A stretch of 64,000 nucleotides of DNA from a bacterium UBP13_UBA5359 (GTDB lineage Bacteria > UBP13 > UBA5359). Position numbers and translations under genes: made by a program. Each line of letters begins with the position of its first letter. The stretch's first letter is position 1. Below the pieces are notes generated by a model. The model made no database searches and was not told the origin of the DNA. It saw only the letters and a list, made by a program, of their open reading frames with translations. Positions 9,034 through 54,506 of this stretch are shown piece by piece. The stretch covers positions 1 to 64,000 of the forward strand of contig DHPR01000013.1 in NCBI GenBank assembly GCA_002410925.1, written 5' to 3'.

Positions 9034-9693
9034 TTGATCGGCACATTACAATCCGTTCGTCCAGCGTATCAGACTATGGTGGATGAGGAGGTCGTTTTAC
9101 AGGCGCGTGAAGGTAATCAGCAGGCGGCAGAGCACCTGATTCGTAAATATAAAAATTATATCAGAGGCAAAGCTAAAACCTACTTTCTGCTGGGAGCCGA
9201 TAGCGACGATATTATTCAGGAAGGCATGATAGGTCTCTATAAAGCCATCAGAGATTACAAGGAGGAGAGAGCTGTTTCCTTTAAGGTTTTTGCCGAAATA
9301 TGTGTAACTCGGCAGATAATTACGGCTATTAAGGCAGCTACTCGTCAGAAGCATAGCTTTCTTAATTCCTATGTATCTTTGAATAAGCCTATCAATGACG
9401 AGAACAGCGACGGGGCTACAATGGCTTCCTTCTTTGTGGGGAAAGAACAGGATCCGCAGGAGGTGGTTATACAACAGCTGATGCTGCGTAATCTTCAGGA
9501 GCGTATTCGAACCAGCTTAAGCCCTTTTGAGATGGATGTGCTTACGCTATATCTGGAGTGTAAATCATACAGCCAGATAGCCGAGACCCTCGACAGGCCG
9601 GTTAAATCCGTGGATAACGCATTGCAGCGTATCAAACGCAAGCTGGGCCGGGAGATCCTGGAAAGTGAGGAGCAGATAGAAGAAGCTGTATAA
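9034..9693 (+). CDS. sigH: RNA polymerase sigma factor SigH
   Basis: YFLLGADSDDIIQEGMIGLYKAIRDY, RQIITAIKAATRQKH..LNSYVSL, KSVDNALQRIKRKL; canonical position after rlmB. Confidence 0.93.
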   Translation: MIGTLQSVRPAYQTMVDEEVVLQAREGNQQAAEHLIRKYKNYIRGKAKTYFLLGADSDDIIQEGMIGLYKAIRDYKEERAVSFKVFAEICVTRQIITAIKAATRQKHSFLNSYVSLNKPINDENSDGATMASFFVGKEQDPQEVVIQQLMLRNLQERIRTSLSPFEMDVLTLYLECKSYSQIAETLDRPVKSVDNALQRIKRKLGREILESEEQIEEAV

Positions 9694-22807: not shown

Positions 22808-22983
22808 GGTCGGCAGGGTTCCTTCCTGTAGGATAAGCGCCTTGATTATACCACCTGCGGGCAGATCATTACATACCTGTGTGCATAATGCACGCAGTGA
22901 TAGCGGATGTTTATTTCCTCTTAACCAGGGTAAAGATTGATTGGATCGGTTACATGAGAAACTCAGCCTGCGATGTGAGGAAT

Positions 22984-23940
22984 ATGACACTCTGCTTAAA
23001 ACGCTTGTTGAAACGCCAACTATACAGTATCATAACCTTGCAGGACGAATGGTCTATAGGTATCTACTCGGGCAATTCTCCCCTCTCTCTGAGTCCGTGC
23101 AGTAATCTAAAAAACCCTGTTCTTACGGTAGCCGATATTACTGATATACCGGCCGCAGCTGTAGCAGATCCCTTTGTTCTTCGCAGAAATGAAGGTTGGT
23201 ACCTCTTTTTTGAAGTTGTAAATGCCGATAATGGACGAGGATCTATCGGTTATGCTGTCAGTGATGACGGATATAGCTGGAGGTACGGGCGTATCGTCCT
23301 GGAGGAACCCTTTCACCTTTCATATCCTTATGTTTTTGAGTGGGATGGCCTATATTATATGTTACCTGAAGCCTCTGCTTCAGGCTCTCTCAGGCTTTAT
23401 AAAGCAACAGATTTCCCTGAAAAATGGGTCTTTGCAGGTAATTTGAAAGAAGGAAATTTTGTCGATCCGTGTATATTTTTACACGATAAGAGATGGTGGC
23501 TGCTGACATCGACAGGATGGAAGGACAGGATAGATATCCTCTGTCTCTTTTATGCAGATCGGCCTACAGGACCATGGCATGAGCATCCTCAAAATCCCTT
23601 TGTCCGCGCCGATAGAAGATTCTGCAGATGCGGAGGTAGAATCACATTTGTGGACGGCCGCATCATACGCTACGTTCAGGATGATTATCCTACTTACGGT
23701 TATCAGGTTTGGGCCTTTGAGATAACCGAATTATCCATCTCCCGATATGCCGAAAGGCCTCTTGCGGCCAAGCCGGTTATCGGCGGTAACGGCAGAGGGT
23801 GGAACGCTGAAGGCATGCATAACATCGACCCCTATCGCCTCGGTAAGGATAACTGGCTGGCATTTGTCGATGGCTACAGAGTGGTCAGACCGGGCAGGCT
23901 TTATACTCCTTTGCTAAAAGAGATGCAAAATGTCTGGTAA
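22984..23940 (+). CDS. GH43-like beta-propeller protein (GINT1 N-terminal-like), polysaccharide-locus associated
   Basis: VADPF, YLFFE, HLSYPYVFE, YMLPE, FVDP, RCGG, GMHNID motifs; ATG 22984 has a GAGG SD. Confidence 0.7.
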   Translation: MTLCLKRLLKRQLYSIITLQDEWSIGIYSGNSPLSLSPCSNLKNPVLTVADITDIPAAAVADPFVLRRNEGWYLFFEVVNADNGRGSIGYAVSDDGYSWRYGRIVLEEPFHLSYPYVFEWDGLYYMLPEASASGSLRLYKATDFPEKWVFAGNLKEGNFVDPCIFLHDKRWWLLTSTGWKDRIDILCLFYADRPTGPWHEHPQNPFVRADRRFCRCGGRITFVDGRIIRYVQDDYPTYGYQVWAFEITELSISRYAERPLAAKPVIGGNGRGWNAEGMHNIDPYRLGKDNWLAFVDGYRVVRPGRLYTPLLKEMQNVW

Positions 23941-25075
23941 CAGGGTTCTCATCATCAATTTATGCTCGGCCGATTATCCGGGCGGAGTAGAGCGGGTTCT
24001 GGCGTCAATTGAAGCTCTTCTTGCCCAGGTCGGATATAAGGTAGATTGGCTGGTGGAAGAAGCACTTTCCCCCAGACAGATCCTTCTTCTCGCTATCCTA
24101 TCCTGGCTAAGGCTTAAAGAATTTGCAATCAATATAATGTTTGCTCACAAGCTTAGCCGATGCGGAGAGTATGCCGCCATTATAACAAACGGTTTTTACG
24201 GTACGCATATCAAACGCAAATGCTGTATACATATCTATCACGGTACGGTGGCCGGCTATAGAAGAGCAGTGGCGAGTCGTCTCTCTTTTTTTAGTCATCT
24301 ACGTCTGCGATCCATGGAGATACTGGAGCGTTTCAGCGGCCGCGGTAAAATAGTAGTGGCCGTATCCGAGCACTGTGCTAAGGAGCTCAAGCGATATTAT
24401 GGGCTCAGCGCGTCGCATATCATAGAGAATGCCGTTGATACCTCTTTCTTTACCCCCGTTTCCGATAAAGAGCGTAAGATGAACAGGCAAAGTCTCTTTG
24501 AATCGGATGCGCCGGTGATCATTTTCGTCGGTCGGGTTGAATATGCCAAAGGCGCCGATATTCTCAATGAGATTATTTATCTGTCACAGAAAAAATATAA
24601 TTTCCTGATATGTGCCGGTGAGTTGGAAGAGGTCTATAGAATAAGGGATGCCTCAAATGTGATTTATATGCTGGGATTGAATCCGGCAGCAATGAAAACC
24701 GCATACGGGTCCGCAGATGTTTTTCTGTTGCCCAGCCGATATGAAGGATACGGGCTGGCTGTTGCCGAGGCTTTGTCTGCCGGTATTCCGGTAGTGGGAA
24801 GCAAGGTGGGGCTGATGGCGGATATTCACAAAAGCAATCCCGTGATCGGACACTATATTCTGGATAGGGATGCCGATCTCTCTGAATATCTCCAGCGAAT
24901 AGATGAAGCCGTTGCAGATCGAGAACGGCTGTCGCTTCTTTCCAGAGAGTATATTCTGCAGCTCCATGATCCGGAGCTTTACAGCAAGAGATGGCAGCAG
25001 ATAGTCTTTGATTTGAATAAGTCAAATATAGCTGATAATAGCCCTGAATTTACCGTTTTCTTCCCGAGGGATTGA
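23930..25075 (+). CDS. Glycosyltransferase family 4
   Basis: GGVER, IENAVD, FVGRVEYAKG, PSRYEGYGLAVAEA (E-x7-E). Confidence 0.9.
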   Translation: MSGNRVLIINLCSADYPGGVERVLASIEALLAQVGYKVDWLVEEALSPRQILLLAILSWLRLKEFAINIMFAHKLSRCGEYAAIITNGFYGTHIKRKCCIHIYHGTVAGYRRAVASRLSFFSHLRLRSMEILERFSGRGKIVVAVSEHCAKELKRYYGLSASHIIENAVDTSFFTPVSDKERKMNRQSLFESDAPVIIFVGRVEYAKGADILNEIIYLSQKKYNFLICAGELEEVYRIRDASNVIYMLGLNPAAMKTAYGSADVFLLPSRYEGYGLAVAEALSAGIPVVGSKVGLMADIHKSNPVIGHYILDRDADLSEYLQRIDEAVADRERLSLLSREYILQLHDPELYSKRWQQIVFDLNKSNIADNSPEFTVFFPRD

Positions 25076-26419
25076 ATGCAACTCGCGAATGTTAAGGGTG
25101 ATGTTCTGTCCCAGCATATCCTCTATATTTCTTTCGATAATGCTTCCAAGATTCTTTTCATATCCGAAAGAGGGCACGATATTGATAGTGAATGATGAAG
25201 CATTCGTCCTTATGAGTTGAGCCGCCAGGACTCCCGGCAGGCTGGACAGCATATGATAGAGAGCAGTATTAATGCATCCTCCCTCGCCGATAATCATATC
25301 TTCATAACGGCTGACGCTATCCTGCAATGGTGGCAATGTATCCCGTCCGCAGGGGCAGCTTTTTTCCGCCCAGGCAGCCATATCGCCGCTACGATATCGT
25401 ATGAATATTTGATTAACGTTGGCAAAGCCGGTGACCACCATCTCACCGGTTTCACCTTTTTTCGTCGGGCTTCCGTCCGGCCTGAGTATCTCCACTAAAC
25501 CGAAATCCGGATTGATATGCAGGGTGCCGTATTCACATTCAGTTGCCAGAGCGCAGTTCTCCGAGCTGCCGTATTCCTGAATGACTCTGGTGCGAAAGAT
25601 ACTCTCCATGATGGGACGCATGGAGTGTTCAAGTCGCTCCCCACTGGCAATTATAGCTTTAGGAGCATGCACTTCAAGCTGAAATTCATTTATCAATTGT
25701 GCCAGAAAGTAATGCCCGGAAGAATATCCCATCATGATCGAAGGCTTGAAATCATTTAATTTATCCGCAAAAGCCTTCGCATTATCTGAATTGATATGAA
25801 AAGCTGAAAGATAGAGCTGCTGTTCCCAGCGGTTGTGTCTCCAGAAAGGCGGATAGGAGTTATTGGCTGAAACTACCTTGCGTCCTCCTATTACCGTCCG
25901 GGGTTGATGATAGCTCACATTAGCCCATCTGAGCGAGCGTGCCTCTCTGACCCCTCCGGTATGCTGGTGCATAGCGGCATCCACATAAATCCTGATACGT
26001 TTGCCGGCGGTGCCGCTGGTATAAATATGAAAAAAAAGGCCGGGTTTCCGTCTGGCCTCTTCTGTGAGCAGGATATCAGGATCGTTGTGCACTACGGCTT
26101 TCTCCAGCAAGGGCAGTTTTTTGAGATCGCCGCTTGTAAAGGTATCTAGCATATGTGCGGTAATGCCGTATTCGCTAAAGATGCGACGATAATAGGGCAC
26201 GCTGATATAGGCCAGCTTCAATTGCCGGCGCAGCCTGTCTTCCACAAAATCCGTCATTCTGTCGGCCGGCCATCTCTCACGCTCAGAATACTCTCGCTGC
26301 ATCCTTTCGAAGACCGGTCCGAATCTTTGCCGTGCCTGATACCATCCAAAGAGATCTATTCCATATTGTTGCAAGTTTACCGGTAACAAGCGAAAGAACT
26401 GATGAAAATGTTCATTCAT
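25022..26419 (-). CDS. CapK-like / phenylacetate-CoA ligase-family adenylating enzyme (polysaccharide modification)
   Basis: VPYYR, LPLLEK, TSGTAG, EYGSSE, IRYRSGD, CPCGR, GKFR; the usual TSGxTG and G-R-x-x-D motifs are slightly degenerate. Confidence 0.78.
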   Translation of the reverse strand: MNEHFHQFFRLLPVNLQQYGIDLFGWYQARQRFGPVFERMQREYSERERWPADRMTDFVEDRLRRQLKLAYISVPYYRRIFSEYGITAHMLDTFTSGDLKKLPLLEKAVVHNDPDILLTEEARRKPGLFFHIYTSGTAGKRIRIYVDAAMHQHTGGVREARSLRWANVSYHQPRTVIGGRKVVSANNSYPPFWRHNRWEQQLYLSAFHINSDNAKAFADKLNDFKPSIMMGYSSGHYFLAQLINEFQLEVHAPKAIIASGERLEHSMRPIMESIFRTRVIQEYGSSENCALATECEYGTLHINPDFGLVEILRPDGSPTKKGETGEMVVTGFANVNQIFIRYRSGDMAAWAEKSCPCGRDTLPPLQDSVSRYEDMIIGEGGCINTALYHMLSSLPGVLAAQLIRTNASSFTINIVPSFGYEKNLGSIIERNIEDMLGQNITLNIRELHSIPREENGKFRAIISYI

Positions 26420-26589
26420 AAATCACGGCTCCTTGTATAAAGGATTATAGAGATTACCTCTTTTCATAATTCGTCCGATTGCTGCATAATACATTTTCTA
26501 TACTCTTTTCTTTATCAAACATAGAAACTCTGCTCTCGCAATCAGCATTATTTATACCCATGTCGTCACAATCATTATCACCCGATATA

Positions 26590-27948
26590 TCAATCATTCT
26601 TTTGCCTGCCGTATAACGCTGCCGCTTTCAGACGATAGGTATTGATCAAACTGCGTTCCTCCTTTGAAATGAGCTCAAAGCGCCATTTGAGCAGCGAACG
26701 GGTGATTACATACCATGCACTGGCAGCTGCAGTAACCGCGTATACACTGATATTGGCCAGTGCCGTTCCCATAGCTCCCCATCCCCAGGCGAGCAGACTG
26801 TAAGCCATAAGGCCAAAGATTATCGACGGCACGGAGACTTTGATAAAAGCTTCTTTAATATTCCCTTTTACCAAAATCAAAGACTGAAAGGGCCTGGTGA
26901 TGTTCAGGAAGACGACACCGATATTCATCAACAGGGCGTAAGTAAAGATGATATTCTTATCACCGTGCGGCAGTATATAATCGAGAAGAGTCTTGCCTGA
27001 TAGCATGAAGATGGCAAGTTGCAGAAGGCTGAGCACAAAACTATATTTGACTGAATGGTTAACAAGCAGATCTGCATCGCTATGACCATATCTCTTAATG
27101 AAGACGGTAACCACGCTGGATATGAGCGCAGGGACAATAAGAAAGATGCTGGTCAATTTAAGAGCTACCGTATAATTGCCTGCATCGTGATAAGATGCAA
27201 ATATGCCCAGGATAAAGGTATCGACCATCAATATGGTATCGTATGAACTCTTGTTAAGATAATTCCAGACGGCAAATCCGGCAAAGCCACGGCGGATAAG
27301 AGGATATGCTTCTTTCCAGGGCAGCAAATGCACGTGAAAAGATTTTACAAGCAACAATGTCCAGAGATAAAATCCCAACGCAGAATTGATCGTCAATATC
27401 AGCATATACAGCATAAGGCTCGGTCGGTAATAGAGAATGATTAAAGCGATGATGGAAAGCAAGCCCAGCAAGAAATTTACCGTAAAAACCAGGCGCTGCC
27501 TCAGGTCGACGGAAAAGAAGCTGCGTGAAATATCCATACCGGCAGTGAGAGCAAAGCTGATCGTCTGGCCCGATATGGCAATCAATACCAGCATACTACC
27601 TTTATGATAAGACATGAAGATACCTGATATAATTGCGACCGCCAGCATTGCCAGGCTCTGCAGCAGCCAGAAATAGTATGCGGCCGAGAAATATTCCGAT
27701 TGCCGGCCGGAGGAATCATCACGGTAGATAATACTGATAAATGAGAACTCCAAAAAGCCCAGAATGGCCAGGAAGCCTTCAGCAATACCGATTATTCCTA
27801 TGATATCCAGGTCCAGCCAGCGGGCCAGCAGAACAAAGGTAATTACGCGGAAGGCTTTGTTGCTCAATATATCGGCAAATTTATAAGCGGTGACTTGCAG
27901 TAGTTTCTGATGCATGCTGCCTCTCATAACGGAATCATTAACAATCAT
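26590..27948 (-). CDS. Polysaccharide flippase (Wzx/MOP family)
   Basis: About 12 TM; LLARWL, DTFILGIF...AGNYTVALKL, WGAMGTALA. Confidence 0.82.
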   Translation of the reverse strand: MIVNDSVMRGSMHQKLLQVTAYKFADILSNKAFRVITFVLLARWLDLDIIGIIGIAEGFLAILGFLEFSFISIIYRDDSSGRQSEYFSAAYYFWLLQSLAMLAVAIISGIFMSYHKGSMLVLIAISGQTISFALTAGMDISRSFFSVDLRQRLVFTVNFLLGLLSIIALIILYYRPSLMLYMLILTINSALGFYLWTLLLVKSFHVHLLPWKEAYPLIRRGFAGFAVWNYLNKSSYDTILMVDTFILGIFASYHDAGNYTVALKLTSIFLIVPALISSVVTVFIKRYGHSDADLLVNHSVKYSFVLSLLQLAIFMLSGKTLLDYILPHGDKNIIFTYALLMNIGVVFLNITRPFQSLILVKGNIKEAFIKVSVPSIIFGLMAYSLLAWGWGAMGTALANISVYAVTAAASAWYVITRSLLKWRFELISKEERSLINTYRLKAAALYGRQKND

Positions 27949-28027: not shown

Positions 28028-28115
28028 TTGTGCAGGGCCGCAAGCGATTTAGTTAGCCGTTATACGGCATCGCTTGTTCGACTTAGTCGAGGGGAGGCAG
28101 TCCTGGCCCTGCCAA
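28028..28115 (+). ncRNA. Candidate structured 5' leader RNA (multi-stem junction), family not recognised
   Basis: P1 GCAGGGCC/GGCCCTGC; P2 CAAGCGAT/ATCGCTTG enclosing GCCGT/ACGGC; P3 TCGAC/GTCGA; P4 GGGA/TCCT. Confidence 0.45.
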
Positions 28116-28137
28116 TGCAGCTTTTAACTTTGGGAGA

Positions 28138-28938: not shown

Positions 28939-29001
28939 GAGGTCAGGTCTACGCCTTTGACTCTTTTGGACAAAAGTGTCAAGGGCGTAGATCCGATCCC
29001 C
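28939..29001. repeat. Long imperfect palindrome (REP/REPIN-like element)
   Basis: GAGGTCAGGTCTACGCCTTTGACTCTTTTG ... CAAAAGTGTCAAGGGCGTAGATCCGATCCCC, about 30-bp arms. Confidence 0.65.
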
Positions 29002-29013
29002 CTCCTTTCACAA

Positions 29014-29039
29014 GTTTATCTTTGCTCCAACTCGGGTAT
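29014..29039 (+). promoter_or_regulatory. SigB-type promoter upstream of the kinase-activator-rpoN operon
   Basis: GTTTAT-14 nt-GGGTAT versus SigB consensus GTTTAA-12/14-GGGWAW. Confidence 0.6.
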
Positions 29040-29051
29040 AAATAGGATAGT

Positions 29052-29074
29052 CAATGGCAATAATCATGCCATTG
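29052..29074. promoter_or_regulatory. Inverted repeat forming sigma54 -24/-12 motifs on both strands
   Basis: CAATGGCA-7-TGCCATTG; + strand TGGCAATAATCATGC, - strand TGGCATGATTATTGC; both are GG-N10-GC. Confidence 0.5.
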
Positions 29075-29154
29075 TATTCTTCACGTATATAAGATTGAAA
29101 GAAGGGTGAAGGCCCGGTCGGGAAGATATTCATGATCCGGACTCCTGAGGGGCA

Positions 29155-31710
29155 ATGATGTACTTGGATGTAAGTAATTTGAAAAGAGCGGGAGAGCGGC
29201 ATATGCCGTCCGATATATGCTTTGAAATTCTGGCAGCCGTTGAACAGATAAGCACACTCCCGGATCCTGAGCGAATAATAGCAATTCTGCAGGAATGGAT
29301 AGAACGGCTGACTCCAGCTTCGGGCATATCGATTTATCGTCTTGATTGCAGAGGCGCAATAGAGAATATCTTTCGTTGGGGAGAAACGCCGAAGAATGGT
29401 GATATGGTTAGCCTGGATGTAGTTGTCGGAGAGATAACCAGAGGATATGTCCATATATATTTTCCCGCAGAGAGAGGCTCTATCCATATCGATTCTCAGG
29501 CCAAAGAGATACTGATGCCTCTGATCCGGCAGGCCTTTCGGGCTTTGGAGAATATGGCGCTGCTGGAGAATTGCGAGCAGCGCTTGAACGAGCTGAATAC
29601 CATTTATGAGGCCAGCCGTGTAATCAGTGCCTCTCCTGACCTCGACAGAGTGGTCTCCTTTCTTATGGGCTTGGCAGGCAAGATTCTCAATTGTGATAGC
29701 GGGCTGGCATTGCTTTTGGATGAAAAAGCACGCCGGCTTACTCTTGAATATGTTCAGGGAGAGGTGGCATCCTTTGCTTCCGGCCTGGAAAAGCTTCTTG
29801 GGGAGGAGCTCTACCTTCAGGTTGAAGAACTGCCCCATCCATTCGTATATGATGCCGCCAGTGCGGAGAATCGTTTTGATGCTCTGCACAAGGCCTGCCC
29901 CTGGTTGAAAAGCTATGTGGCACTGCCGCTGCGAGCTGAAGGGAAAAATATAGGCTTGCTGATATTGGCTGCATCCACCGGGGTGGCGTATCCGCCGGAG
30001 CTGATACGCCTGCTAACCATATTATCTGCTCAGGCAGCAGTGATATTGAAGAATGCTCTTTCCTACAAGCGTGCCGTGGAGCAAAAAACTCTGGAGTTAT
30101 CGACGCTCTATTATGCTTCAGCCAGATTGAGCTCAGCCTCCAATGCCGAGGAAGCCAATCATGTCATTCTGGATATAATAAGCGGTGTCGTTAAATATGA
30201 TGAGAGCTTTATCTATGTTTACGATAATATCAATGAGAGGTTGATACTCAATGCTTCACGAACAGCAACCGATCCTCCATACCGGATTATCGATTGCGCT
30301 GATCAGGATAATGCCTATGCCTGGGCCTTTCACGAAGGAAAAGCAGTAATTTTCAGCGATACTGCCAGAGAAAAGCTATCCAAAGACCTGGCGGAGAAGA
30401 GAGAAATGCGGTCAGCCATAGTGATACCGCTGGTAGTGGAGCACAGAGCTATAGGTATTCTGGCTGTCCAGAGCCGTGAGCCCGCTGTTTATACGGAGGA
30501 TCATGCCCGCATGCTTTCAATTATCGCCTCTCAGGCAGCGGCCACATATAAATCGTTGGAAGTGCTGGATACTCTAACCAGCTATACGGTGAACATACTT
30601 CGCAGTATTGCTTCGGGAGTGGTTACGGTGGATACCGAGGGGCGCATAAGCCTCTGGAATGCTGCCATGGAAAAGTTTACGCGCCTGGGACGACGTAAGG
30701 TTCTGGGTGGAAGTCTTATGGATGTCATGGGAGGAATAGATGCCGAAGCCTGCCGGCGTATAGACGAGGTGAAGCGCCAGGTAATGCGCTATGGAAGAAC
30801 GATACGGGGATACGAGATATCTCTGCCCGGAAAAAAAGGAGAGCTTACCTTTAATCTGAATTGTTCCCGTTTGAAAAGCAGTTCCGGTGAGATTCTAGGA
30901 GTAGTTCTGGTATTTGAAAATATAACCGAACGCAAGGCTATAGAGGGCCAGGTTCGCAGAGTAAGCCAGCTGGCAGCTATAGGGCAGCTGGCTGCCAACG
31001 TAGCGCATGAGATAAGGAATCCTCTCAGCGCTATCAAAGGTGCCGCTCAATATCTTCAAAGTGAATTAGGAGAGCAATCCATCTTCTCAGAATTCAGCGC
31101 TATCATTAGCCAGGAAACGGACAGGCTTAACAGAGTAATTACAGACTTTCTCACCTTTGCCAGGCCCAATCCGCCCAATTTGCGTCGTTATGATCTCAAT
31201 GAGGTATTAGGACGTTGCCTGAATCTCCTGGCTGCAGAGATAGAGCAAAGAGAGATCAAAGCAAAAATACGTCTTTCCGGCAAGCTGCCGGAAATATACA
31301 TAGATAGCGATCACCTGGAGCAGGTCTTCCTTAACCTTCTGATCAACGCTCTGCAAGCGATGCAGAACGGAGGAACGCTGACCGTATCCAGTGCTCTGAC
31401 CCGCGATAGAGAGGAAACCGGCGGCGGCGGTTATATACGAGTAGATATAAGAGATAGCGGCTGCGGTATCGCCCGGGATGATCTGGATAAGATATTCGTT
31501 CCCTTTTTTACTACCAAGAGTGGTGGCAGCGGGCTCGGACTTTCTATAGTACATCAGATAGTGGAAAGCCACGGAGGCTTTATTCGTATCAGCAGCCGCG
31601 CCGATTACGGCAGCATCTTCAGCATATATATCCCGTGCAGAACCAGAGAAGAGGCGGAAGAGTTAATGCGAAGCTGCCGAAATGTCGGTAGTCCGCAGTT
31701 GACAAGATAG
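29155..31710 (+). CDS. Cytoplasmic multi-GAF/PAS sensor histidine kinase
   Basis: GAF motifs (SYVALPL...IGLL, SAIVIPLVVEHRAIGIL), PAS (GVVTVD..WNAAME), H-box AHEIRNPL, N/G1/F/G2 boxes; no TM. Confidence 0.92.
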   Translation: MMYLDVSNLKRAGERHMPSDICFEILAAVEQISTLPDPERIIAILQEWIERLTPASGISIYRLDCRGAIENIFRWGETPKNGDMVSLDVVVGEITRGYVHIYFPAERGSIHIDSQAKEILMPLIRQAFRALENMALLENCEQRLNELNTIYEASRVISASPDLDRVVSFLMGLAGKILNCDSGLALLLDEKARRLTLEYVQGEVASFASGLEKLLGEELYLQVEELPHPFVYDAASAENRFDALHKACPWLKSYVALPLRAEGKNIGLLILAASTGVAYPPELIRLLTILSAQAAVILKNALSYKRAVEQKTLELSTLYYASARLSSASNAEEANHVILDIISGVVKYDESFIYVYDNINERLILNASRTATDPPYRIIDCADQDNAYAWAFHEGKAVIFSDTAREKLSKDLAEKREMRSAIVIPLVVEHRAIGILAVQSREPAVYTEDHARMLSIIASQAAATYKSLEVLDTLTSYTVNILRSIASGVVTVDTEGRISLWNAAMEKFTRLGRRKVLGGSLMDVMGGIDAEACRRIDEVKRQVMRYGRTIRGYEISLPGKKGELTFNLNCSRLKSSSGEILGVVLVFENITERKAIEGQVRRVSQLAAIGQLAANVAHEIRNPLSAIKGAAQYLQSELGEQSIFSEFSAIISQETDRLNRVITDFLTFARPNPPNLRRYDLNEVLGRCLNLLAAEIEQREIKAKIRLSGKLPEIYIDSDHLEQVFLNLLINALQAMQNGGTLTVSSALTRDREETGGGGYIRVDIRDSGCGIARDDLDKIFVPFFTTKSGGSGLGLSIVHQIVESHGGFIRISSRADYGSIFSIYIPCRTREEAEELMRSCRNVGSPQLTR

Positions 31711-31722
31711 AGGAGGAGCAAT

Positions 31723-32946
31723 ATGGCCAAAGAGCAACAATCAAAAGTACTCATTGTCGACGATGAACCCAATATAAGACATATACTCGGCGCTATCTTA
31801 CGCAAAGACGGATATGCTGTGCAATCAGCGGATAATGGCGAAGGAGCATTGAAACTTCTTGAAGAAGAAGCTTTCGATCTGATCATAACTGATCTGGTCA
31901 TGCCCCAGATGGGCGGGATCGATCTGCTGCATGAAATTCAACAGCGCAGGCCCGGTACGTCCGTAGTTATTATGACGGCTTACGGTACTATTAAAACAGC
32001 CGTTGAAGCTATGAAGATGGGAGCGAGAGATTATATCACCAAGCCCTTTGAAATGGATGAGGTTAAGATTGTAGCTCGAAACGCACTTAATATGGCCGGC
32101 CTGGTCAAAGAGAACCGGATTCTCAAACAGGAATTAGGCCGGCGCTGTGCCTGTGACGAAATGATCGGAGATAGCCGTGCCATGGCCGAAATAACGGATA
32201 TGATAGAAAAGGTGGCTAAAAGTCGGGCTACCGTACTGATTAGCGGCGAAAGCGGCACCGGTAAGGAATTAGTGGCCAGAGCCATACATCGTAATAGCCG
32301 GCGGTCCGGCAATCCATTTATCGCCGTTAATTGCGCTGCACTTTCCAACGATCTGTTGGAGAGCGAACTATTCGGCCATGAAAAGGGCGCCTTTACGGGG
32401 GCTATGGCGCAAAAGCCGGGCAGATTCGAACTGGCGGATGGAGGTACTCTCTTTCTGGATGAAGTAGGAGAGATCAGCCCTGCGCTCCAGGTAAAGCTTT
32501 TGCGTATACTTCAGGAACGCGAATTCGAGAGGGTGGGAGGTACAAAGACTATAAAAGTAGATATAAGGCTTATAGCAGCCACCAATCGTGATCTGGAGGA
32601 GGCGGTAAAGAAGAACGACTTTCGTGAAGATCTATATTATCGTCTTAAGGTTATAGAGATGCATACTCCTTCGCTTAGAGAGCGCATTGAGGATATTCCC
32701 ATGCTGGCAGAACATTTTCTCAAACGTTTTTCACATGAGAACGGTAAAAAGCTGAGAGAAATAAGCAGCGAGGCGACCAATCTCTGTCAAAGCTATAGTT
32801 GGCCAGGCAATATCAGAGAGTTGGAAAACGCTGTGGAATATGCCGTTATTATGGCCGATGAACGCTGTGAGGAATTGACGCCGGAGATGCTTCCTTTGAG
32901 CATACAGCTTGCTTTTAATCGTAAAGAGGATGAGGTGAAGGCATGA
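31723..32946 (+). CDS. Sigma54-dependent response regulator (REC + AAA+), no C-terminal HTH
   Basis: [49 protein letters not shown]; ends about 35 aa later with no Fis HTH. Confidence 0.92.
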
Positions 32947-34358
32947 GAGTTCAGCAGGCGACGAGGCAATCACAGAAAATAGATCCTAAAATAATAGCTA
33001 CCAGCGCCATTTTACAGCTCTCATCGTTAGAACTTACGCAGAAAATAGAGAGCGAACTTCAAGAGAATCCTGCACTGGAAGAGGAAAAAGAGAGCCTTTG
33101 CCCTAATTGTAATCAGCCTATGAAGAGCAGTATTTGTGAACACTGTGGCGCAGCTTCCGATGATAGGTCCAGTGCCGATAACCTGGTATGGGAACAATTC
33201 GGGTATTACTATGACGGGACAAACTATCATCATTACGAAGATCAGCACGACCCATTGTCAAGGTTGGAGGATGAGGTTTCACTGCAAGAACATTTGCAAC
33301 AATTGTTGCGCATCATCATCTCTAATGAAGATTATGTCATTGGCGATTTTTTGATCAGCAACATAGATGATAATGGATATTTACATTGCAGCCCGAGTGA
33401 GGTTGCAGAGAGACTGCGCTTGCCGGAAGAGAGGGTTAATGCAGTATTAAAGTCATTGCAGACGCTGGATCCTCCCGGTGTGGGTGCTCGCACTCCTCAG
33501 GAATGCCTTCTGTTGCAATTGGATTATCTGGCAGATAGAGGTATGGGAAATTCATTGGCTTATGCTATTGTCGAATCTTGTTTCTTTCAACTGGGAAACC
33601 ATCGTTACAAAGATATAGCCAGAGCTTTGGGTGTAAAGGTGGCCGAGGTCCAGAAAGCCGGCGATTTTATTCGAGATAATCTGAATCCTTATCCCGGCAG
33701 GCAGTTTCGCAGCTCATGGGATTTTCAGCCGGTATCCAGATCAAGCCTTACGCGGCCTGATGTTATTATTCGTTATGATGGAAAGGCATATACGGTGGAA
33801 GTTGTGGACGGACGGGACATAACGCTCAGGATCAATAAATTCTATCGCAATCTCTATCTGGATATGCAGAACAACAGAGAGAGTTATACTCAGGAGGAAA
33901 GAAAACATACCGCCGGCTATATCGAGAGAGCAGAATTGTTGATCAAAAATATTCATCAACGGCGGCAAACCATTCATGATATAACCAGCTGCATAATCGA
34001 TTTTCAATATAAATTTCTGGAAACAGGAGATAGATTGGATCTTATACCCCTAACTCGTACCAAAGTGGCCGCTACCCTGGGAACAGATGAATCCACTGTT
34101 AGCCGGGCGCTGACCAATAAATATGTGGAACTGCCCAGCCATCAGATAACCGATTATGATATCTTTTTTGATGCCTCACTCAGTATAAAGGAGATAATCA
34201 GGAAAATTATTACGGAGGAAGATCCATGCAATCCCATCAGCGATGAGGATATAAAGAAGAAGCTCTGCGGTATGGGCTGCGACATAGCACGCCGTACCGT
34301 GACTAAATACCGTGAGGAGATGGAGGTACTGTCATCTAATTTGAGGAGGCGTTACTGA
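32943..34358 (+). CDS. rpoN: RNA polymerase sigma-54 factor
   Basis: ILQLSSLEL...[35 protein letters not shown], RpoN box [14 protein letters not shown] overlap with the activator. Confidence 0.95.
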
Positions 34359-34403
34359 AGAAGCATAGAGCTGAGAAAAGAAAGAGCAAGGAGGAGAAAA
34401 GAG

Positions 34404-34907
34404 ATGGCTGAAAATAATGGCCATAACAAGAACAAGGAAAAGAGTAGGAGAAAGATGGCAGGCCGACCGGACAGCACTATCGAGGTGGATGAACTGCAGG
34501 CTCTCTCTACCGATGAGGCACGCCAGATGCTGGAGATATTGGGTACCGAGAACGCAGGTTATGAAGCAGACGACCCTGATATGTCCATCGAGGATGCCAG
34601 GCCGTACTTTCCTCCCCTGGAAGATCCTTACAGCCCACCTGCCGAGCGTGAGCTGCAGGATGAACCCGACATGACGGATCCTGCTTTTAGAAAAGAGGTT
34701 ACTCCCGATGACTACCTGGAAAAGAGGGTCAGATATGAACTGGAGCACAGCGCTCAGATTACTATGGATAATATAAGCGTATCCAGCAATCACGGCATAA
34801 TATTCCTTAATGGGAGGGCGGGCAGCCTTGAAGAGGCCGGAGAGGCAGAGGAGATAGCCGGCACAATTGAAGGCGTAAGAGAGGTAATAAGTAATTTGAA
34901 TTGGTGA
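34404..34907 (+). CDS. BON-domain protein with acidic N-terminal region
   Basis: C-terminal DDYLEKRVRYEL...ISVSSNHGIIFLNG...AEEIAGTIEGVREVISNL. Confidence 0.82.
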   Translation: MAENNGHNKNKEKSRRKMAGRPDSTIEVDELQALSTDEARQMLEILGTENAGYEADDPDMSIEDARPYFPPLEDPYSPPAERELQDEPDMTDPAFRKEVTPDDYLEKRVRYELEHSAQITMDNISVSSNHGIIFLNGRAGSLEEAGEAEEIAGTIEGVREVISNLNW

Positions 34908-34933: not shown

Positions 34934-34962
34934 TTGATAACGTCTAAGCTGTGTAATATAAT
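34934..34962 (+). promoter_or_regulatory. SigA-type promoter
   Basis: TTGATA-17 nt-TATAAT. Confidence 0.55.
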
Positions 34963-35021: not shown

Positions 35022-38000
35022 TTGAGAAGAGCCATAATTGCAGCCATAATGGCAATCACGATTATCTTTACAATCGCCTGCTTGATCTGGGTAAAAAGCA
35101 GAAGCCTTCCAACACTTATCAAGCAGGCGATTGTTTCTGAGCTTTCACGTAATTTGGATACGGCCGTCTTCGTTGGCGATGTTCAATTCGGAGGACCTTT
35201 TTCCATTCAGCTGGAAAATGTAGCCATAGCCGGTCGTAATCAAGAAGCCGGCACGGAGCCCTTTCTGCAAAGCGATGAAGTTGATGTGATACTCGATCCG
35301 CTGAGATATCTCTTTTCCGGCGGTAAACCCATAGATATCATAAGAGGATTGCATATCGGACGGCCGCAGGTCAGCTTGTCTCGGGTTTCCGATGGCGGAT
35401 GGAATATTCCTTTGCCGGTATCAGGCTCCGGCTCTGGTAGAAGATGGCCGGATATCGAAATAACGCTCCATAATGGAACTTTGGCGGTTGATGCAGCTGA
35501 AAGAGATAGCATGCTACCTGAGCGTATAACCGCCAATCTGGATAACGGCATCCTGAATTTGAACAAAAAAGAGCTCTCTTTCAACATAAATGCAGGGGTA
35601 ATCAGTGACGGCAGAGATAATAGGAATAGGGTGGTTTTAAAAGGCAGTTACGGTACAGCGGGCGGGTGTTTGCAAATGCAGTTTGATCAATTGCAGGCCG
35701 GCATATGGCGCCGAATGCTCTCTCGTTTTACCTCTGCAGATATAATCTCCGGCAGCCTTAGCGGGTATATAAATGCAGAACATAAATCCAATGCATGGAG
35801 GCTGAACAAGGGTTCTGTTAATTTATCCGATGCGCGTATATTACCTTATAAAGATGCTGCAGAAGTCATGATACGTCAGGCGAAATTGCGCCTGGATGAT
35901 AAAAACATTTATCTGCCTCGGACAGCCCTGCAATGGCTTGGTGAAACGGCCTATCTTTCCGGCAATATCGAAGATTACAGGCAGGCACGTAAGCTTGACT
36001 TGAAAATCGATGCCGATTCGACGAACTTAGCTCGATTGGCAGCCGCAGTAACGCAGGGTGATTTGCCCTGTATAGAGGGGCAGGGCACGGTCGGTATTCG
36101 AGTATCGGGTTCGCTATCCTCGCCACGCCTCTTCGGCTCAATTAAAAGCGATCGCATCAGTTATAATAAGGAGCGCTTACAAGATGTCAAGGCTGATTTT
36201 GCATGCTTAAATGGAGGCAGATACCTTCTCTCCGGTGAAGCACGTTATCTTGATGCGCCTATTAGCGGCCGTTTGACGGGCAAAAACGGTCGGCTTAGCT
36301 ATGTCGGACGGGTGAATAATCTGGAGGCCAGGCGCATACCCGCTTTGGCGCAGGCCGGCCTGGCCGGTATAGGTAGAGTATCTATGCATTTTCAAGGCCG
36401 CTCTGGGCATGAAAATTATTTACTGCAAGGCAAATTCTCGGGTGGTTCAGGAAATATAAAAGGATTCGGTTATAAATCCGTTACCGGCCGTTTCACTTCC
36501 AACGGCAATGGTATCAACCTGCAAGAGATGAAGTTCGGCACCGAGTTTGGAACGCTGGAGGCAAAGGCTATTATACATAAGGGGCGCTTCAATCTCTCTC
36601 TTCATGGCAGCGATCTCCAGCCCGGCAGAATATTGCCGCCGCAATTCAAGGGAATCAAAGCCAACATGAAGGCAGATATAAGAGGCCCCTCCTCCCGGGG
36701 CGGCATGGCGCTCACAGCCCATTTTAATTTCAGCCAAGGCATTTACGGAGTCAACTCTTTACATTTGACATTTCCTCAGACCTCTTCTTCAAAAGCTTGC
36801 GAGCGCAACTCCTTACGTTTGGCATTTTCCCAGCTCTTCTCTTCGGAAGAGAGCTCTCAACCCGTTCTACGTGCCGTTGTCAGCGGTCGGGAATTGATAT
36901 ATCAAGGTGTTCCGCTGGATAAGCTTGAAGCCGATCTAATATATAGCGAAGGCCAATTAAGAATTCCCAGCCTGATTGTAAAAGAGGCCGCCGGAGATTT
37001 AACCGCAACTGGAATAAGTGTGCCGGTGGCGCTTAAGAACGGCCGAATAAGCTTTGGCGGTCCTATTGCCGGAAAGATAGATGCGTCGCTTGTGGATATG
37101 ACAGCCTGGGGCTGGAAACGTTTAGCCAATTTCTCAGGACCGCTGAAAATTCATGGAAGCCTGAGCGGTAGCGTTGAGAATCCCATCTTATCCGGTAACA
37201 TTGCTCTTCCGAAAGGCTATCTGAATTTACAGGGGCTTGACATCAGTGCTTTGGCCTGCAATTTTACAGCTGACAGGGATAAAATTGATATAGCGAATCT
37301 GAAAGGAAAGATAGGGCAATTCGGTGGCGATTCATCTATTGCTTCTTACACCATAGGTAGCTTCAGCGGTGACGGTAACATATCATTGCAGAATTGGCAA
37401 CTGGATAAGCTGCATGGACGTTTGGCACTGACGGATGGACGTTTGGAGAGCCTGGCCTATCTAGTCGCTCCCTATTTTAAAAATATTTCGGGCGCTTTTT
37501 CGGGTGATATTTTTATTGCGGGAAAGGTATCTTCTCCTGCTATTATCGGAGATATTCGTCTGGCGGATGCCGGAGGCTATTTTGGCTCTCTGAAAACCCC
37601 TCTGGCGGGTGTGAACGGCCAGCTTCATTTGAGCGGCAATCAACTTGAAATAGTCCGGTTGAAAGGCATGATGGATAAGGGTACCTTTAATATAAGCGGT
37701 GATGTGGAATTAGAGGGTATCAAGCCTACTTTTTTGAAGTTGGCTGTAGCCTCCGATAATGCTCGTATCAATTACTCACCTTGCTTCGATGGGTTAGTCG
37801 CTTCTGAATTGCTTATCTCCGGCCCGGTAGCAGAACCGCTGATTGAAGGCAGCATCGGCATTACTAACAGCCGAGTCTCTCTGGCCGGCCTGAACGGTGC
37901 GGATAAGAGCTTTTTTCATCCGGAGCTTAATATCAAAGGCACCATGGGCCATGGCGTCGAGATCATTCTCTCAAAGATATCCGCTCCCGTAAAGGGAACG

Positions 38001-38105
38001 CTTGAAATCTCCGGCACACTGGAAGCGCCCCGGTTGGAACCCCGGAATATGGTGGCTGATTTCGGACTGTTTAAGATTCCTATTAAGAATATTTCGCTCT
38101 TCTAA
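35022..38105 (+). CDS. TamB/AsmA-like large beta-rich envelope protein
   Basis: N-terminal TM anchor; AsmA-like start; repeated GSLSSPRL / GSVENPILSG / GPVAEPLIEG / GTLEAPRL motifs. Confidence 0.78.
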   Translation: MRRAIIAAIMAITIIFTIACLIWVKSRSLPTLIKQAIVSELSRNLDTAVFVGDVQFGGPFSIQLENVAIAGRNQEAGTEPFLQSDEVDVILDPLRYLFSGGKPIDIIRGLHIGRPQVSLSRVSDGGWNIPLPVSGSGSGRRWPDIEITLHNGTLAVDAAERDSMLPERITANLDNGILNLNKKELSFNINAGVISDGRDNRNRVVLKGSYGTAGGCLQMQFDQLQAGIWRRMLSRFTSADIISGSLSGYINAEHKSNAWRLNKGSVNLSDARILPYKDAAEVMIRQAKLRLDDKNIYLPRTALQWLGETAYLSGNIEDYRQARKLDLKIDADSTNLARLAAAVTQGDLPCIEGQGTVGIRVSGSLSSPRLFGSIKSDRISYNKERLQDVKADFACLNGGRYLLSGEARYLDAPISGRLTGKNGRLSYVGRVNNLEARRIPALAQAGLAGIGRVSMHFQGRSGHENYLLQGKFSGGSGNIKGFGYKSVTGRFTSNGNGINLQEMKFGTEFGTLEAKAIIHKGRFNLSLHGSDLQPGRILPPQFKGIKANMKADIRGPSSRGGMALTAHFNFSQGIYGVNSLHLTFPQTSSSKACERNSLRLAFSQLFSSEESSQPVLRAVVSGRELIYQGVPLDKLEADLIYSEGQLRIPSLIVKEAAGDLTATGISVPVALKNGRISFGGPIAGKIDASLVDMTAWGWKRLANFSGPLKIHGSLSGSVENPILSGNIALPKGYLNLQGLDISALACNFTADRDKIDIANLKGKIGQFGGDSSIASYTIGSFSGDGNISLQNWQLDKLHGRLALTDGRLESLAYLVAPYFKNISGAFSGDIFIAGKVSSPAIIGDIRLADAGGYFGSLKTPLAGVNGQLHLSGNQLEIVRLKGMMDKGTFNISGDVELEGIKPTFLKLAVASDNARINYSPCFDGLVASELLISGPVAEPLIEGSIGITNSRVSLAGLNGADKSFFHPELNIKGTMGHGVEIILSKISAPVKGTLEISGTLEAPRLEPRNMVADFGLFKIPIKNISLF

Positions 38106-50623: not shown

Positions 50624-50648
50624 GTTTTTATATCTGCGTAACGGGTAT
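50624..50648 (+). promoter_or_regulatory. SigB-type promoter
   Basis: GTTTTT-13 nt-GGGTAT upstream of the PilZ-like and P-ATPase genes. Confidence 0.4.
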
Positions 50649-54200: not shown

Positions 54201-54506
54201 CTATATATCTATTCCCGCCGCGCTTAGAATCTCGCTTATATCGCTATCCCTATCCGCCATCTTGGCAGCCTGAATAGGATCAAGCATCTCCAACAGTTTC
54301 ATAAACTCCGCTACGTGCTCTTTTTCCTCATCCCGAATATGTGCCAGCACAGCTTTAGCGCGCTCATCATCAGTGGCGTCAATGTGCGCCTGGTAGAGTG
54401 CTGCGGCATCGAGTTCAGCAGCAATATCCTGAGATATTGCTCTGGCCAGTTCATTCTTTTCCATCTTTCTTGCTACCAAGGTGCCAAAAGGATTGCTCAA
54501 GTCCAT
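54201..54506 (-). CDS. Encapsulin-associated ferritin-like protein (C-terminal linker and targeting peptide frameshifted)
   Basis: AAELDAAALYQAH...LAHIRDEEKEHVAEF ferroxidase half-site. Confidence 0.85.
   Translation of the reverse strand: MDLSNPFGTLVARKMEKNELARAISQDIAAELDAAALYQAHIDATDDERAKAVLAHIRDEEKEHVAEFMKLLEMLDPIQAAKMADRDSDISEILSAAGIDI

Follow-up and report, generated by a model that had tools for sequence, protein, structure and literature searches.

Sigma-54-dependent transcription is usually viewed as the work of many enhancer-bound activators, each with promoters of its own. A 64,000-nt stretch of contig DHPR01000013.1 from the bacterium UBP13_UBA5359 (assembly GCA_002410925.1), which we refer to as the window, raises the question of whether an organism can instead run all of its sigma-54 promoters through one activator that does not bind DNA. 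The operon under study (window positions 29155–34907) encodes a sensor histidine kinase (HK), a response regulator (RR) of the sigma-54 activator class, sigma-54 itself (RpoN), and a BON-domain protein. An earlier interpretation made from the DNA letters (the sequence-only reading) had described these genes as a self-contained sigma-54 switch behind a SigB-type promoter, with an activator that lacks the usual C-terminal helix-turn-helix (HTH). Our analysis favors a model in which this operon constitutes the entire sigma-54 system of the organism, namely a kinase, an HTH-less activator, and a sigma-54 that carries a four-cysteine (Cys4) motif. The mechanism that we propose resembles the CtcB/CtcC/sigma-54 pathway, and we assign a probability of roughly 0.6 to both the single-operon model and this mechanism as a whole.

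Organization of the operon

Coordinates without a contig name refer to the window, and C-numbers denote contigs of the same genome. The four genes lie on the plus strand in the order HK-RR-rpoN-BON, and the list of open reading frames (ORFs) agrees with the coordinates and the overlap described previously. The kinase and regulator genes are separated by 12 nt and rpoN and BON by 45 nt; the stop codon of the regulator and the start codon of rpoN share ATGA within GGCATGAGAG, for a spacing of −4 nt. For comparison within the genus, we used this genome (G000) together with the only two other species of the genus, G001 and G002. Gene order, ATGA overlap, and the HTH-less end of the regulator are kept in both species, whose regulators are 95% and 88% identical to that of G000, respectively, which answers the call in the sequence-only reading for a synteny check. 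This recurrence, which extends to the promoter motif described below, speaks against a chance arrangement.

Pfam assigns two GAF domains, PAS, HisKA, and HATPase_c to the kinase, which has an H-box at residue 618. Its hydropathy (19-residue Kyte-Doolittle mean) reaches a maximum of only 1.78, inside the second GAF domain, which indicates that the protein has no transmembrane segment, as had been claimed. The BON domain (PF04972) occupies residues 102–165 of the fourth protein. The N-terminal half of this protein is acidic and of low hydrophobicity (19-residue maximum, 0.62) with a charged N-terminus; no signal-peptide-like segment or lipobox was found in it, so that it lacks the features expected for periplasmic export of the OsmY kind, and it scores far under the cut-offs of the NCBIfam models for OsmY and DolP. 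Each of the three species has BON after rpoN, although in G002 about 240 nt of repeats separate the two genes. No BON gene adjoins the module in the 30 best loci of the related phylum described below. Both the repeat gap and the absence of BON in relatives point to a genus-level addition. The next gene (35022–38105), which is TamB-like, has its own conserved sigma-70-like promoter that marks the end of the operon.

The activator lacks a DNA-binding domain and is the only one in the genome

The 407-residue activator matches Response_reg, Sigma54_activat (PF00158, E = 4.2e-76), and AAA_lid_14. It contains the phosphorylatable D57, Walker A (GESGTGK at 175), GAFTGA at 222, and Walker B (LFLDE at 243), which bears out the earlier description of intact receiver (REC) and AAA+ motifs. 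The protein thus has the Walker A, Walker B, and GAFTGA elements of bacterial enhancer-binding proteins in the REC plus AAA+ arrangement without HTH that is typical of CtcC and FlgR (type Ic activators). The best NCBIfam model is AtoC (516.9 bits, under the cut-off of 714), and the FlgR model scores 342 bits, under its cut-off of 750. The sequence GNIREL at residues 362–367 is followed by 40 residues; the tail beyond the landmark peptide of the sequence-only reading, put there at about 35 residues, measures 38. The scan proposed in that reading found no match to HTH_8 (PF02954) in the activator at E ≤ 0.01 and none in the six frames of the whole genome. A frameshifted HTH beyond the activator stop can be set aside, since the frames there contain only rpoN. 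Nor is the missing domain a private truncation, given that PF02954 is present in just 6 of 120 homologs.

The genome assembly comprises 2.25 Mb in 40 contigs and is 98.4% complete. PF00158 has one strong match in it, the activator of the operon. Four other matches are weak (E = 2e-8 to 8e-4) and fall in open frames of 434–869 amino acids that we read, by score and length alone, as other AAA+ proteins. The count of further sigma-54 activators suggested previously thus yields no strong candidate. PF04552 likewise has a single match, the rpoN of the operon. With a single rpoN and a single true activator in a genome of this completeness, the operon would represent the whole sigma-54 system. Phosphotransfer from the kinase to D57 is a prediction of the model; D57 and the H-box are both present, and the adjacency of the two genes is conserved.

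Sigma-54 of the operon carries a Cys4 motif

RpoN contains all three Pfam domains of the family, AID (PF00309), CBD (PF04963), and DBD (PF04552). It exceeds the cut-off of TIGR02395 (297.9 versus 277.35 bits) and has the RpoN box, ARRTVTKYR, at residue 449. The cysteine motif noted in the sequence-only reading was located directly after region I, where it aligns with the beginning of region II, an acidic part of the solved sigma-54. Region II is described as acidic, mostly non-essential, and without predicted structure in a review (PMC5095919), in which the term zinc ribbon refers to TFIIB. In the AlphaFold2 model of RpoN, the predicted local distance difference test score is moderate (about 67) at the Cys4 motif and falls below 50, a sign of disorder, for residues 74–110. 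RpoN departs from the solved proteins in that its region II begins with Cys4, a difference within the family that does not exclude it from membership. The position of the motif adjoins the part of sigma-54 that is remodeled by the activator.

Among the 120 nearest RpoN homologs, 87 contain CxxC-N5-16-CxxC. Every species of the genus has the motif, as do three of four regulator-linked RpoN proteins from a phylum reached by way of genome G014 (the G014-route phylum); it was found in none of 27 RpoN proteins from other lineages, that of G014 itself included. Our literature search on a Cys4 motif in sigma-54 found no paper.

The HTH-less module is common in a phylum-level group

The 120 nearest regulator homologs are 53–100% identical to the activator, and those with names come from metagenome-assembled genomes (MAGs) of Armatimonadota, Armatimonadetes, or Chthonomonadales. 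PF02954 is absent from 114 of them, and 93 end 20–49 residues past GN[IV]REL. The module is thus not unique to this organism and instead represents the common form across a phylum-level group. Eighty-one genomes of the G014-route phylum contain one regulator match (47 genomes), two (13), three (4), or none (17). In the 30 best loci from these genomes, a homologous kinase adjoins the regulator in 24 and rpoN does so in 6, in the arrangement rpoN-(HK)-RR. We extended 12 related loci, six of which had been chosen for rpoN adjacency that was already known; rpoN is present in seven, and one of these (L125; HK-RR-REC-rpoN) has the same relative order as the operon studied here. In other lineages, none of 27 loci has an activator near rpoN within a flank of 1.5 kb.

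Proteins from the Armatimonadota-type MAGs resemble those of the window in length, absence of HTH_8, and Cys4 position (activators 55–62% and RpoN 40–47% identical), and the adjacent kinase is likewise of the GAF/PAS type. Their loci differ in that linked rpoN is mostly found as rpoN-(HK)-RR or HK-REC-rpoN-RR, often behind a sigma-54 promoter, and in that neither a sigmaB-type motif nor a BON gene was found there. A literature search that paired Armatimonadota or Armatimonadetes with RpoN or sigma-54 returned only an unrelated metagenome paper, and the name Armatimonadota gave no hit in a survey of sigma-54 regulons published in 2025 (PMC12316311).

A small predicted sigma-54 regulon

Because a plain genome-wide scan for the sigma-54 consensus (at least 10 of 11 positions) gave no enrichment (60 matches versus about 60 in Markov shuffles), we screened candidate sites for conservation in G001 and G002. 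Five −24/−12 sites are kept in all three species, although the sequence just upstream is unalignable or derives from different genes. Where G002 differs, the substitutions either lie within the spacer or give a better −24 element. Pfam assignments of the genes behind these sites are given in Table 1; they comprise an operon for exopolysaccharide (EPS) export, a surface protein, a radical-SAM enzyme, an operon for two STAS proteins and a PP2C phosphatase, and a small protein. No 6-, 7-, or 8-mer is common to the regions upstream of these sites beyond the level seen in random sets, as predicted for an activator that is blind to DNA. Activation without enhancers would follow from the missing domain together with the missing conserved DNA upstream.

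The first STAS protein behind the site on C10 (C10:66687-67019; the GAF-PP2C phosphatase of this operon lies at C10:67886-69601) is 47% identical to the RsbV-like protein encoded in the sigB operon described below, and its phosphorylatable residue lies at the same place. A tblastn search with three STAS proteins found no further copy in the genome at E ≤ 1e-3. The resemblance and the retained residue make possible a loop that runs from sigmaB through sigma-54 to the RsbV paralog and PP2C and back to sigmaB.

A protein of approximately 120 residues occurs as four paralogs (25–32% identical) at C10:67564-67926, C36:11223-11630, C30:836-1192, and C13:395153-395476. A conserved sigma-54 promoter precedes two of them, and a sigmaB-type motif precedes another; Pfam scans of two paralogs matched no family. 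A candidate sixth sigma-54 promoter, the intergenic TTAGGCTTGATTTTTGCA at C13:420201-420218 on the minus strand, lies 88 nt before a 1407-residue ORF. Further candidate sites are found at C40:262937 and C40:270806 (common sequence TGGACTTGCTATAGAT), C13:313734, C13:314279, and C32:10012.

Other matches were discarded. The one perfect consensus match, at C23:81753, lies inside a gene whose translation reads as DNA-methylase-like, the window site 54471–54486 is coding by translation, and the site at 28104–28119 before the gene for a CuAO_N-domain protein is not conserved in G001. Matches at C19:74793-74809 and C40:191995-192011 run antisense to the N-terminal coding part, itself conserved, of prepilin-type genes; such matches are a source of false positives in −24/−12 scans of this lineage. 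From their translations, we also read as coding, or antisense to coding, the matches at C7:2700, C13:234581, C40:231598, C3:18029, C4:13481, C13:394841, C23:75100, C23:82590, C16:3791, C35:6186, C13:181190, and C40:229789.

A probable sigmaB-type promoter precedes the operon

The consensus for SigB (group 3) of Bacillus subtilis consists of GTTT(aa) at −35 and GGGTAT at −10 with a spacing of 12–15 nt, and transcription from such promoters is expected to start 7–9 nt past the −10. Upstream of the kinase gene, GTTTAT (29014–29019) and GGGTAT (29034–29039) are separated by 14 nt and fit this B. subtilis-derived consensus. The motif is unchanged in the three species of the genus, and the DNA 5′ of it is unalignable in G002. 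Throughout the genome, GTTT-N14-17-GGGTA[TA] occurs 72 times versus 15, 26, and 23 times in three Markov shuffles, an excess of approximately 3-fold, and 29–32 of the 72 occurrences lie in the 7.5–8.7% of the genome outside long ORFs.

The genome also encodes a sigma factor of the SigB/F/G family (C1:11968-12756; TIGR02980, 284.4 bits versus a cut-off of 234.35). Genes for an RsbW-like kinase (C1:11539-11964) and a STAS protein lie 5′ of it, preceded by a gene read as YtxH-like; the best model for the gene next to the sigma factor is RsbW (101 bits, under the cut-off of 145). Another sigmaB-type motif (GTTTAGC...GGGTAT) lies 90 nt 5′ of a RimK-like ligase gene and six genes for KGG/GsiB-like hydrophilins (C10:76766-79635), an array that this motif would place in the same predicted general-stress regulon. 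Other genes behind the motif encode, as named from their N-terminal sequences, Usp-, YeaQ/GlsB-, and peroxiredoxin-like proteins, a second BON protein, and two RRM-type RNA-binding proteins. The genome is thus likely to have a sigmaB-type general-stress regulon of which the sigma-54 operon is a member. The proposal of a SigB-type promoter gains from the SigB/RsbW pair, the invariance of the motif in three species, and its intergenic enrichment before genes of the general-stress type.

A second sigmaB-type motif in the window (50624–50648) lies 29 nt before a 139-residue ORF without a Pfam family, which is followed by a gene for a P-type cation ATPase (51100–53766). Three paralogs of the sigma-70 family (219–248 residues) appear SigH/Spo0H-like by reading; they lie at window positions 9034–9693, C37:31343-32017, and C1:69674-70420.

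A palindrome in the operon leader

The sequence-only reading did not remark on a perfect palindrome, AATGGCA-ATAATCA-TGCCATT, that begins 14 nt 3′ of the sigmaB-type −10 element. It is present as a single copy in the genome and displays the GG-N10-GC geometry of sigma-54 sites on both strands. A position weight matrix (PWM) built from the five promoters above places the minus-strand reading (TGGCAT-N5-TTGCC) 52nd among 4.5 million positions and the plus-strand reading (TGGCAA-N5-ATGCC) 1910th. The strict pattern TGGCAY-N5-TTGC was found seven times in the 12 extended related loci versus approximately 0.3 expected by our own estimate, and six of the seven sites lie between genes of the module. 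In two loci of one genus (L130 and L131) the site lies about 80 nt before rpoN-HK-RR; in L125 it precedes REC-rpoN; and one site lies just 3′ of the regulator gene. In L127 and L128, which belong to one family, a canonical site just before rpoN points backwards into the HK-REC gene. Since six of the seven strict sites lie between module genes, feedback by sigma-54 on its own module seems common in the related group. The palindrome is the likely equivalent in this operon and probably adds such feedback, either positive or negative.

Three explanations of the palindrome compete with this view. The first, which we regard as rather unlikely and yet the best of the three, holds that the palindrome is unrelated to sigma-54 and serves as a repressor operator or as a stabilizing hairpin at the 5′ end of the mRNA; the rest of the model would stand. 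A perfect palindrome at a promoter is most often an operator. Three copies of TGGCA-N7-TGCCA exist in the genome, close to chance by a base-frequency estimate, and the palindrome folds as the first hairpin of the predicted leader. However, the whole leader folds no better than shuffled sequences (z = −1.6), and the palindrome sits in the promoter of a sigma-54 operon whose counterparts in relatives are enriched in sigma-54 promoters.

According to the second explanation, sigma-54 itself is the main driver of the operon through the palindrome, in a positive autoregulation for which GTTTAT/GGGTAT would be a weak priming promoter or a sequence conserved for another reason. The invariance of the palindrome, its geometry on both strands, and the canonical sites before rpoN-HK-RR or REC-rpoN in relatives speak for it. 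Against these stand the poor rank of the plus-strand reading and the equal conservation of the sigmaB-type motif, which comes from an enriched intergenic class; moreover, a purely self-dependent system would be unable to start. We therefore judge this explanation unlikely.

In the third, the palindrome would act as a roadblock or antisense device in negative feedback. Holoenzyme bound to the minus-strand site would cover +14 to +32 of the transcript that is driven by sigmaB and, once activated, would transcribe back over the sigmaB promoter and damp the operon. Although the minus strand is the better match and L127 and L128 have sites that point backwards, these two loci are of one lineage and the explanation is purely inferred. 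Furthermore, no product of the minus strand is conserved, and a hairpin able to terminate the antisense RNA is missing at this place in G001. We consider this explanation improbable. Finally, we give little credence to a limited role of the activator, in which a DNA-binding partner or the 40-residue tail, which is conserved within the genus past the AAA+ lid, would bring it to particular promoters: the genome has no HTH_8, the five promoters have no conserved or shared upstream DNA, and a lone activator that serves a lone sigma-54 would have no need to discriminate.

A proposed mechanism and its weak points

Our preferred model is one in which the operon, by virtue of its sigmaB-type promoter, would supply sigma-54, the activator, and the kinase when the SigB-like factor is active. 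The GAF/PAS kinase would sense a cytoplasmic signal and phosphorylate Asp57 of the REC-AAA+ activator, which would then assemble and, from solution, activate any sigma-54 holoenzyme that waits at a −24/−12 promoter. Lacking a DNA-binding domain, the activator would be expected to reach all sigma-54 promoters in this manner, so that one signal could switch a whole regulon of at least five promoters: those of the EPS-export operon, the LRR surface protein, the radical-SAM enzyme, the STAS-STAS-PP2C operon, and the small protein. Sigma-54 holoenzyme would in addition probably feed back on its own operon through the palindrome.

Several observations weigh against parts of this model. The sigmaB-type motif precedes the module in none of the 12 related loci, as judged by a strict pattern in genomes of 50–70% G+C, so that the sigmaB link is at best genus-specific; nor was such a motif seen by eye before the sigB operon itself. 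Given the lack of genome-wide enrichment, the regulon is drawn entirely from conservation in three closely related species. Use of the five promoters is deduced from conserved motifs, and transcription as an operon and its start site are predicted from sequence in the same way; enhancer-free activation is likewise deduced, from a domain and conserved upstream DNA that are both missing. The ranking of the palindrome is partly circular, as five sites served to train the PWM, and its better-matching strand faces away from the operon.

If every element were taken at its fullest, the two sigma factors would form a closed loop, a bistable switch that commits the cell to an encased, stress-resistant state. 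The SigB-like factor would bring about synthesis of a sigma-54 that binds zinc, together with the kinase and the enhancer-free activator; a second, cytoplasmic signal would then allow sigma-54 to turn on exopolysaccharide export and surface proteins. Sigma-54 would also turn on the RsbV paralog and the GAF-PP2C phosphatase, which would act back on RsbW/SigB, and its holoenzyme would occupy the palindrome in the leader of its own operon. Through the Cys4 knuckle that adjoins region I, sigma-54 would itself become sensitive to zinc or redox state, and the enhancer-free module with Cys4-sigma-54 would represent the ancestral sigma-54 design of the phylum-level group. We regard it as improbable that all of these parts hold jointly.

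Comparison with known systems

The sequence-only reading named FlgR and CtcC as known HTH-less activators but did not recognize a SigB-to-sigma-54 stress or dormancy cascade as described. Activators without HTH that are the only one of their genome form a described class (PMC7482065 and PMC3162934), and the dormancy part of that cascade gains no support from our analysis. In Chlamydia trachomatis, CtcC controls a sigma-54 regulon made up of membrane proteins although it lacks a DNA-binding domain (PMC7482065). FlgR is likewise named as lacking such a domain in a work that also connects sigma-54 with exopolysaccharide and the cell exterior (PMC3162934), and Chlamydia, Borrelia, and Lactobacillus plantarum are described as genomes with a single activator (PMC3162934 and PMC7482065).

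Compared by description, Chlamydia CtcB/CtcC likewise consists of a two-component kinase and a sole REC-AAA+ activator without a DNA-binding domain. In both cases the regulon is set by −24/−12 promoters and is rich in envelope proteins, and both activators are AtoC-like. Unlike in Chlamydia, kinase, activator, and rpoN are joined here in one translationally coupled operon, sigma-54 carries Cys4, a sigmaB-type promoter lies upstream, and the host is a free-living environmental bacterium of another lineage. In Borrelia burgdorferi, the Hk2/Rrp2-RpoN-RpoS cascade has sigma-54 turn on rpoS. That pathway resembles ours in that sigma-54 and its only activator are connected serially to a sigma factor of the stress type. 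The direction is reversed, however: in the window the sigma-54 operon lies behind a sigmaB-type promoter, and a sigma-54 promoter in turn precedes the RsbV paralog and PP2C elsewhere in the genome.

FlgS/FlgR of Helicobacter and Campylobacter also pairs a cytoplasmic kinase with a REC-AAA+ activator, and FlgR acts without binding to an enhancer. FlgR serves flagellar genes and is not encoded with rpoN, whereas here no flagellar Pfam gene lies behind any of the five promoters. H. pylori RpoN requires for its accumulation HP0958, a separate zinc-ribbon protein, as indicated by the title of a reference in PMC12316311; in the operon studied here the Cys4 motif lies within sigma-54 itself.

HTH-less activators, single-activator genomes, and the link between sigma-54 and EPS or the cell exterior are already known. 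The features that appear to be new are the fusion of kinase and activator with rpoN in one operon, the Cys4 sigma-54, the stress-type promoter before rpoN, the predicted sigma-54 control of an RsbV-like partner-switching module, and the enhancer-free design as the rule in a large, unstudied group. Our literature search found nothing on Cys4 at the boundary of regions I and II, on a general-stress promoter before rpoN, or on an RsbV-like module controlled by sigma-54. Apparently, most genomes of this large and almost unstudied group would use one DNA-blind activator for all sigma-54 promoters. The organism would offer a complete minimal sigma-54 regulon in testable form, with one kinase, one activator, one sigma factor, and about five promoters, much like the chlamydial system that has been rebuilt in E. 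coli, and the predicted targets in EPS export and at the surface are consistent with the published role of sigma-54 at the cell exterior.

Features of the operon and neighboring DNA

Table 1 Coordinates of the operon, its control elements, and the conserved sigma-54 sites.
Feature	Position	Strand	Basis or context
SigmaB-type promoter motif, GTTTAT-N14-GGGTAT	29014..29039	+	Direct reading; invariant in three species
Perfect palindrome, AATGGCA-N7-TGCCATT; each strand has the sigma-54 geometry GG-N10-GC	29053..29073	.	Invariant in three species
Sensor histidine kinase, cytoplasmic: N-terminal region, 2 GAF, PAS, HisKA, HATPase_c	29155..31710	+	Pfam; 851 aa
REC-AAA+ sigma-54 activator without DNA-binding domain	31723..32946	+	Pfam, NCBIfam, motifs; 407 aa
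rpoN (sigma-54)	32943..34358	+	Pfam, TIGR02395, RpoN box; 471 aa
Cys4 motif, CPNC-N8-CEHC, RpoN residues 53–68	33099..33146	+	Homolog comparison
BON-domain protein	34404..34907	+	Pfam BON, E = 1.7e-11; 167 aa
Sigma-70-like promoter of next gene, TTGATA-17-TATAAT	34934..34962	+	11/12 match; kept in three species
Sigma-54 site TTTGGCACACTTCCTGCA	C3:15012-15029	-	Before Wza-like exporter, Wzc-like kinase, Wzx-like flippase, two genes read as glycosyltransferases
Sigma-54 site TTTGGCATATATTTTGCC	C4:32607-32624	-	Before 899-aa secreted LRR/Ig-like protein
Sigma-54 site TTTGGAATGATTTTTGCC	C22:12606-12623	+	Before radical-SAM/SPASM protein
Sigma-54 site TTTGGCTTTAAAATTGCA	C10:66559-66576	+	Before STAS, STAS, 120-aa protein, GAF-SpoIIE(PP2C) phosphatase
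Sigma-54 site TCTGGCATAAATTCTGCA	C36:11650-11667	-	Before 135-aa paralog of the 120-aa protein; no Pfam family

Directly upstream of the operon, a surface-glycan cluster (22879–27948) encodes a GINT1_N-like transferase, a GT4 glycosyltransferase, an AMP-binding-like protein, and a 452-residue multi-pass membrane protein without a Pfam family. A long hairpin, GGTCTACGCC...GGCGTAGATCC (28945–28998), lies 3′ of the CuAO_N-domain gene and looks like a small mobile repeat. It is missing at this place in G001, where a similar hairpin is inserted 5′ of the CuAO_N-domain gene instead (L007, ~2200-2250).

Elsewhere, regularly repeated peptide blocks in the translations of C7:29936-30418 and C40:1-690 suggest CRISPR-like arrays at contig ends. 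Heptamers repeated in tandem (CTCCTGA, CTTCAGA, and relatives) occupy intergenic DNA at L008:40-125 and ~5500-5690, at C4:32640-32720, and in many contigs of G002, in which one query stretch of such repeats matched more than 20 places.

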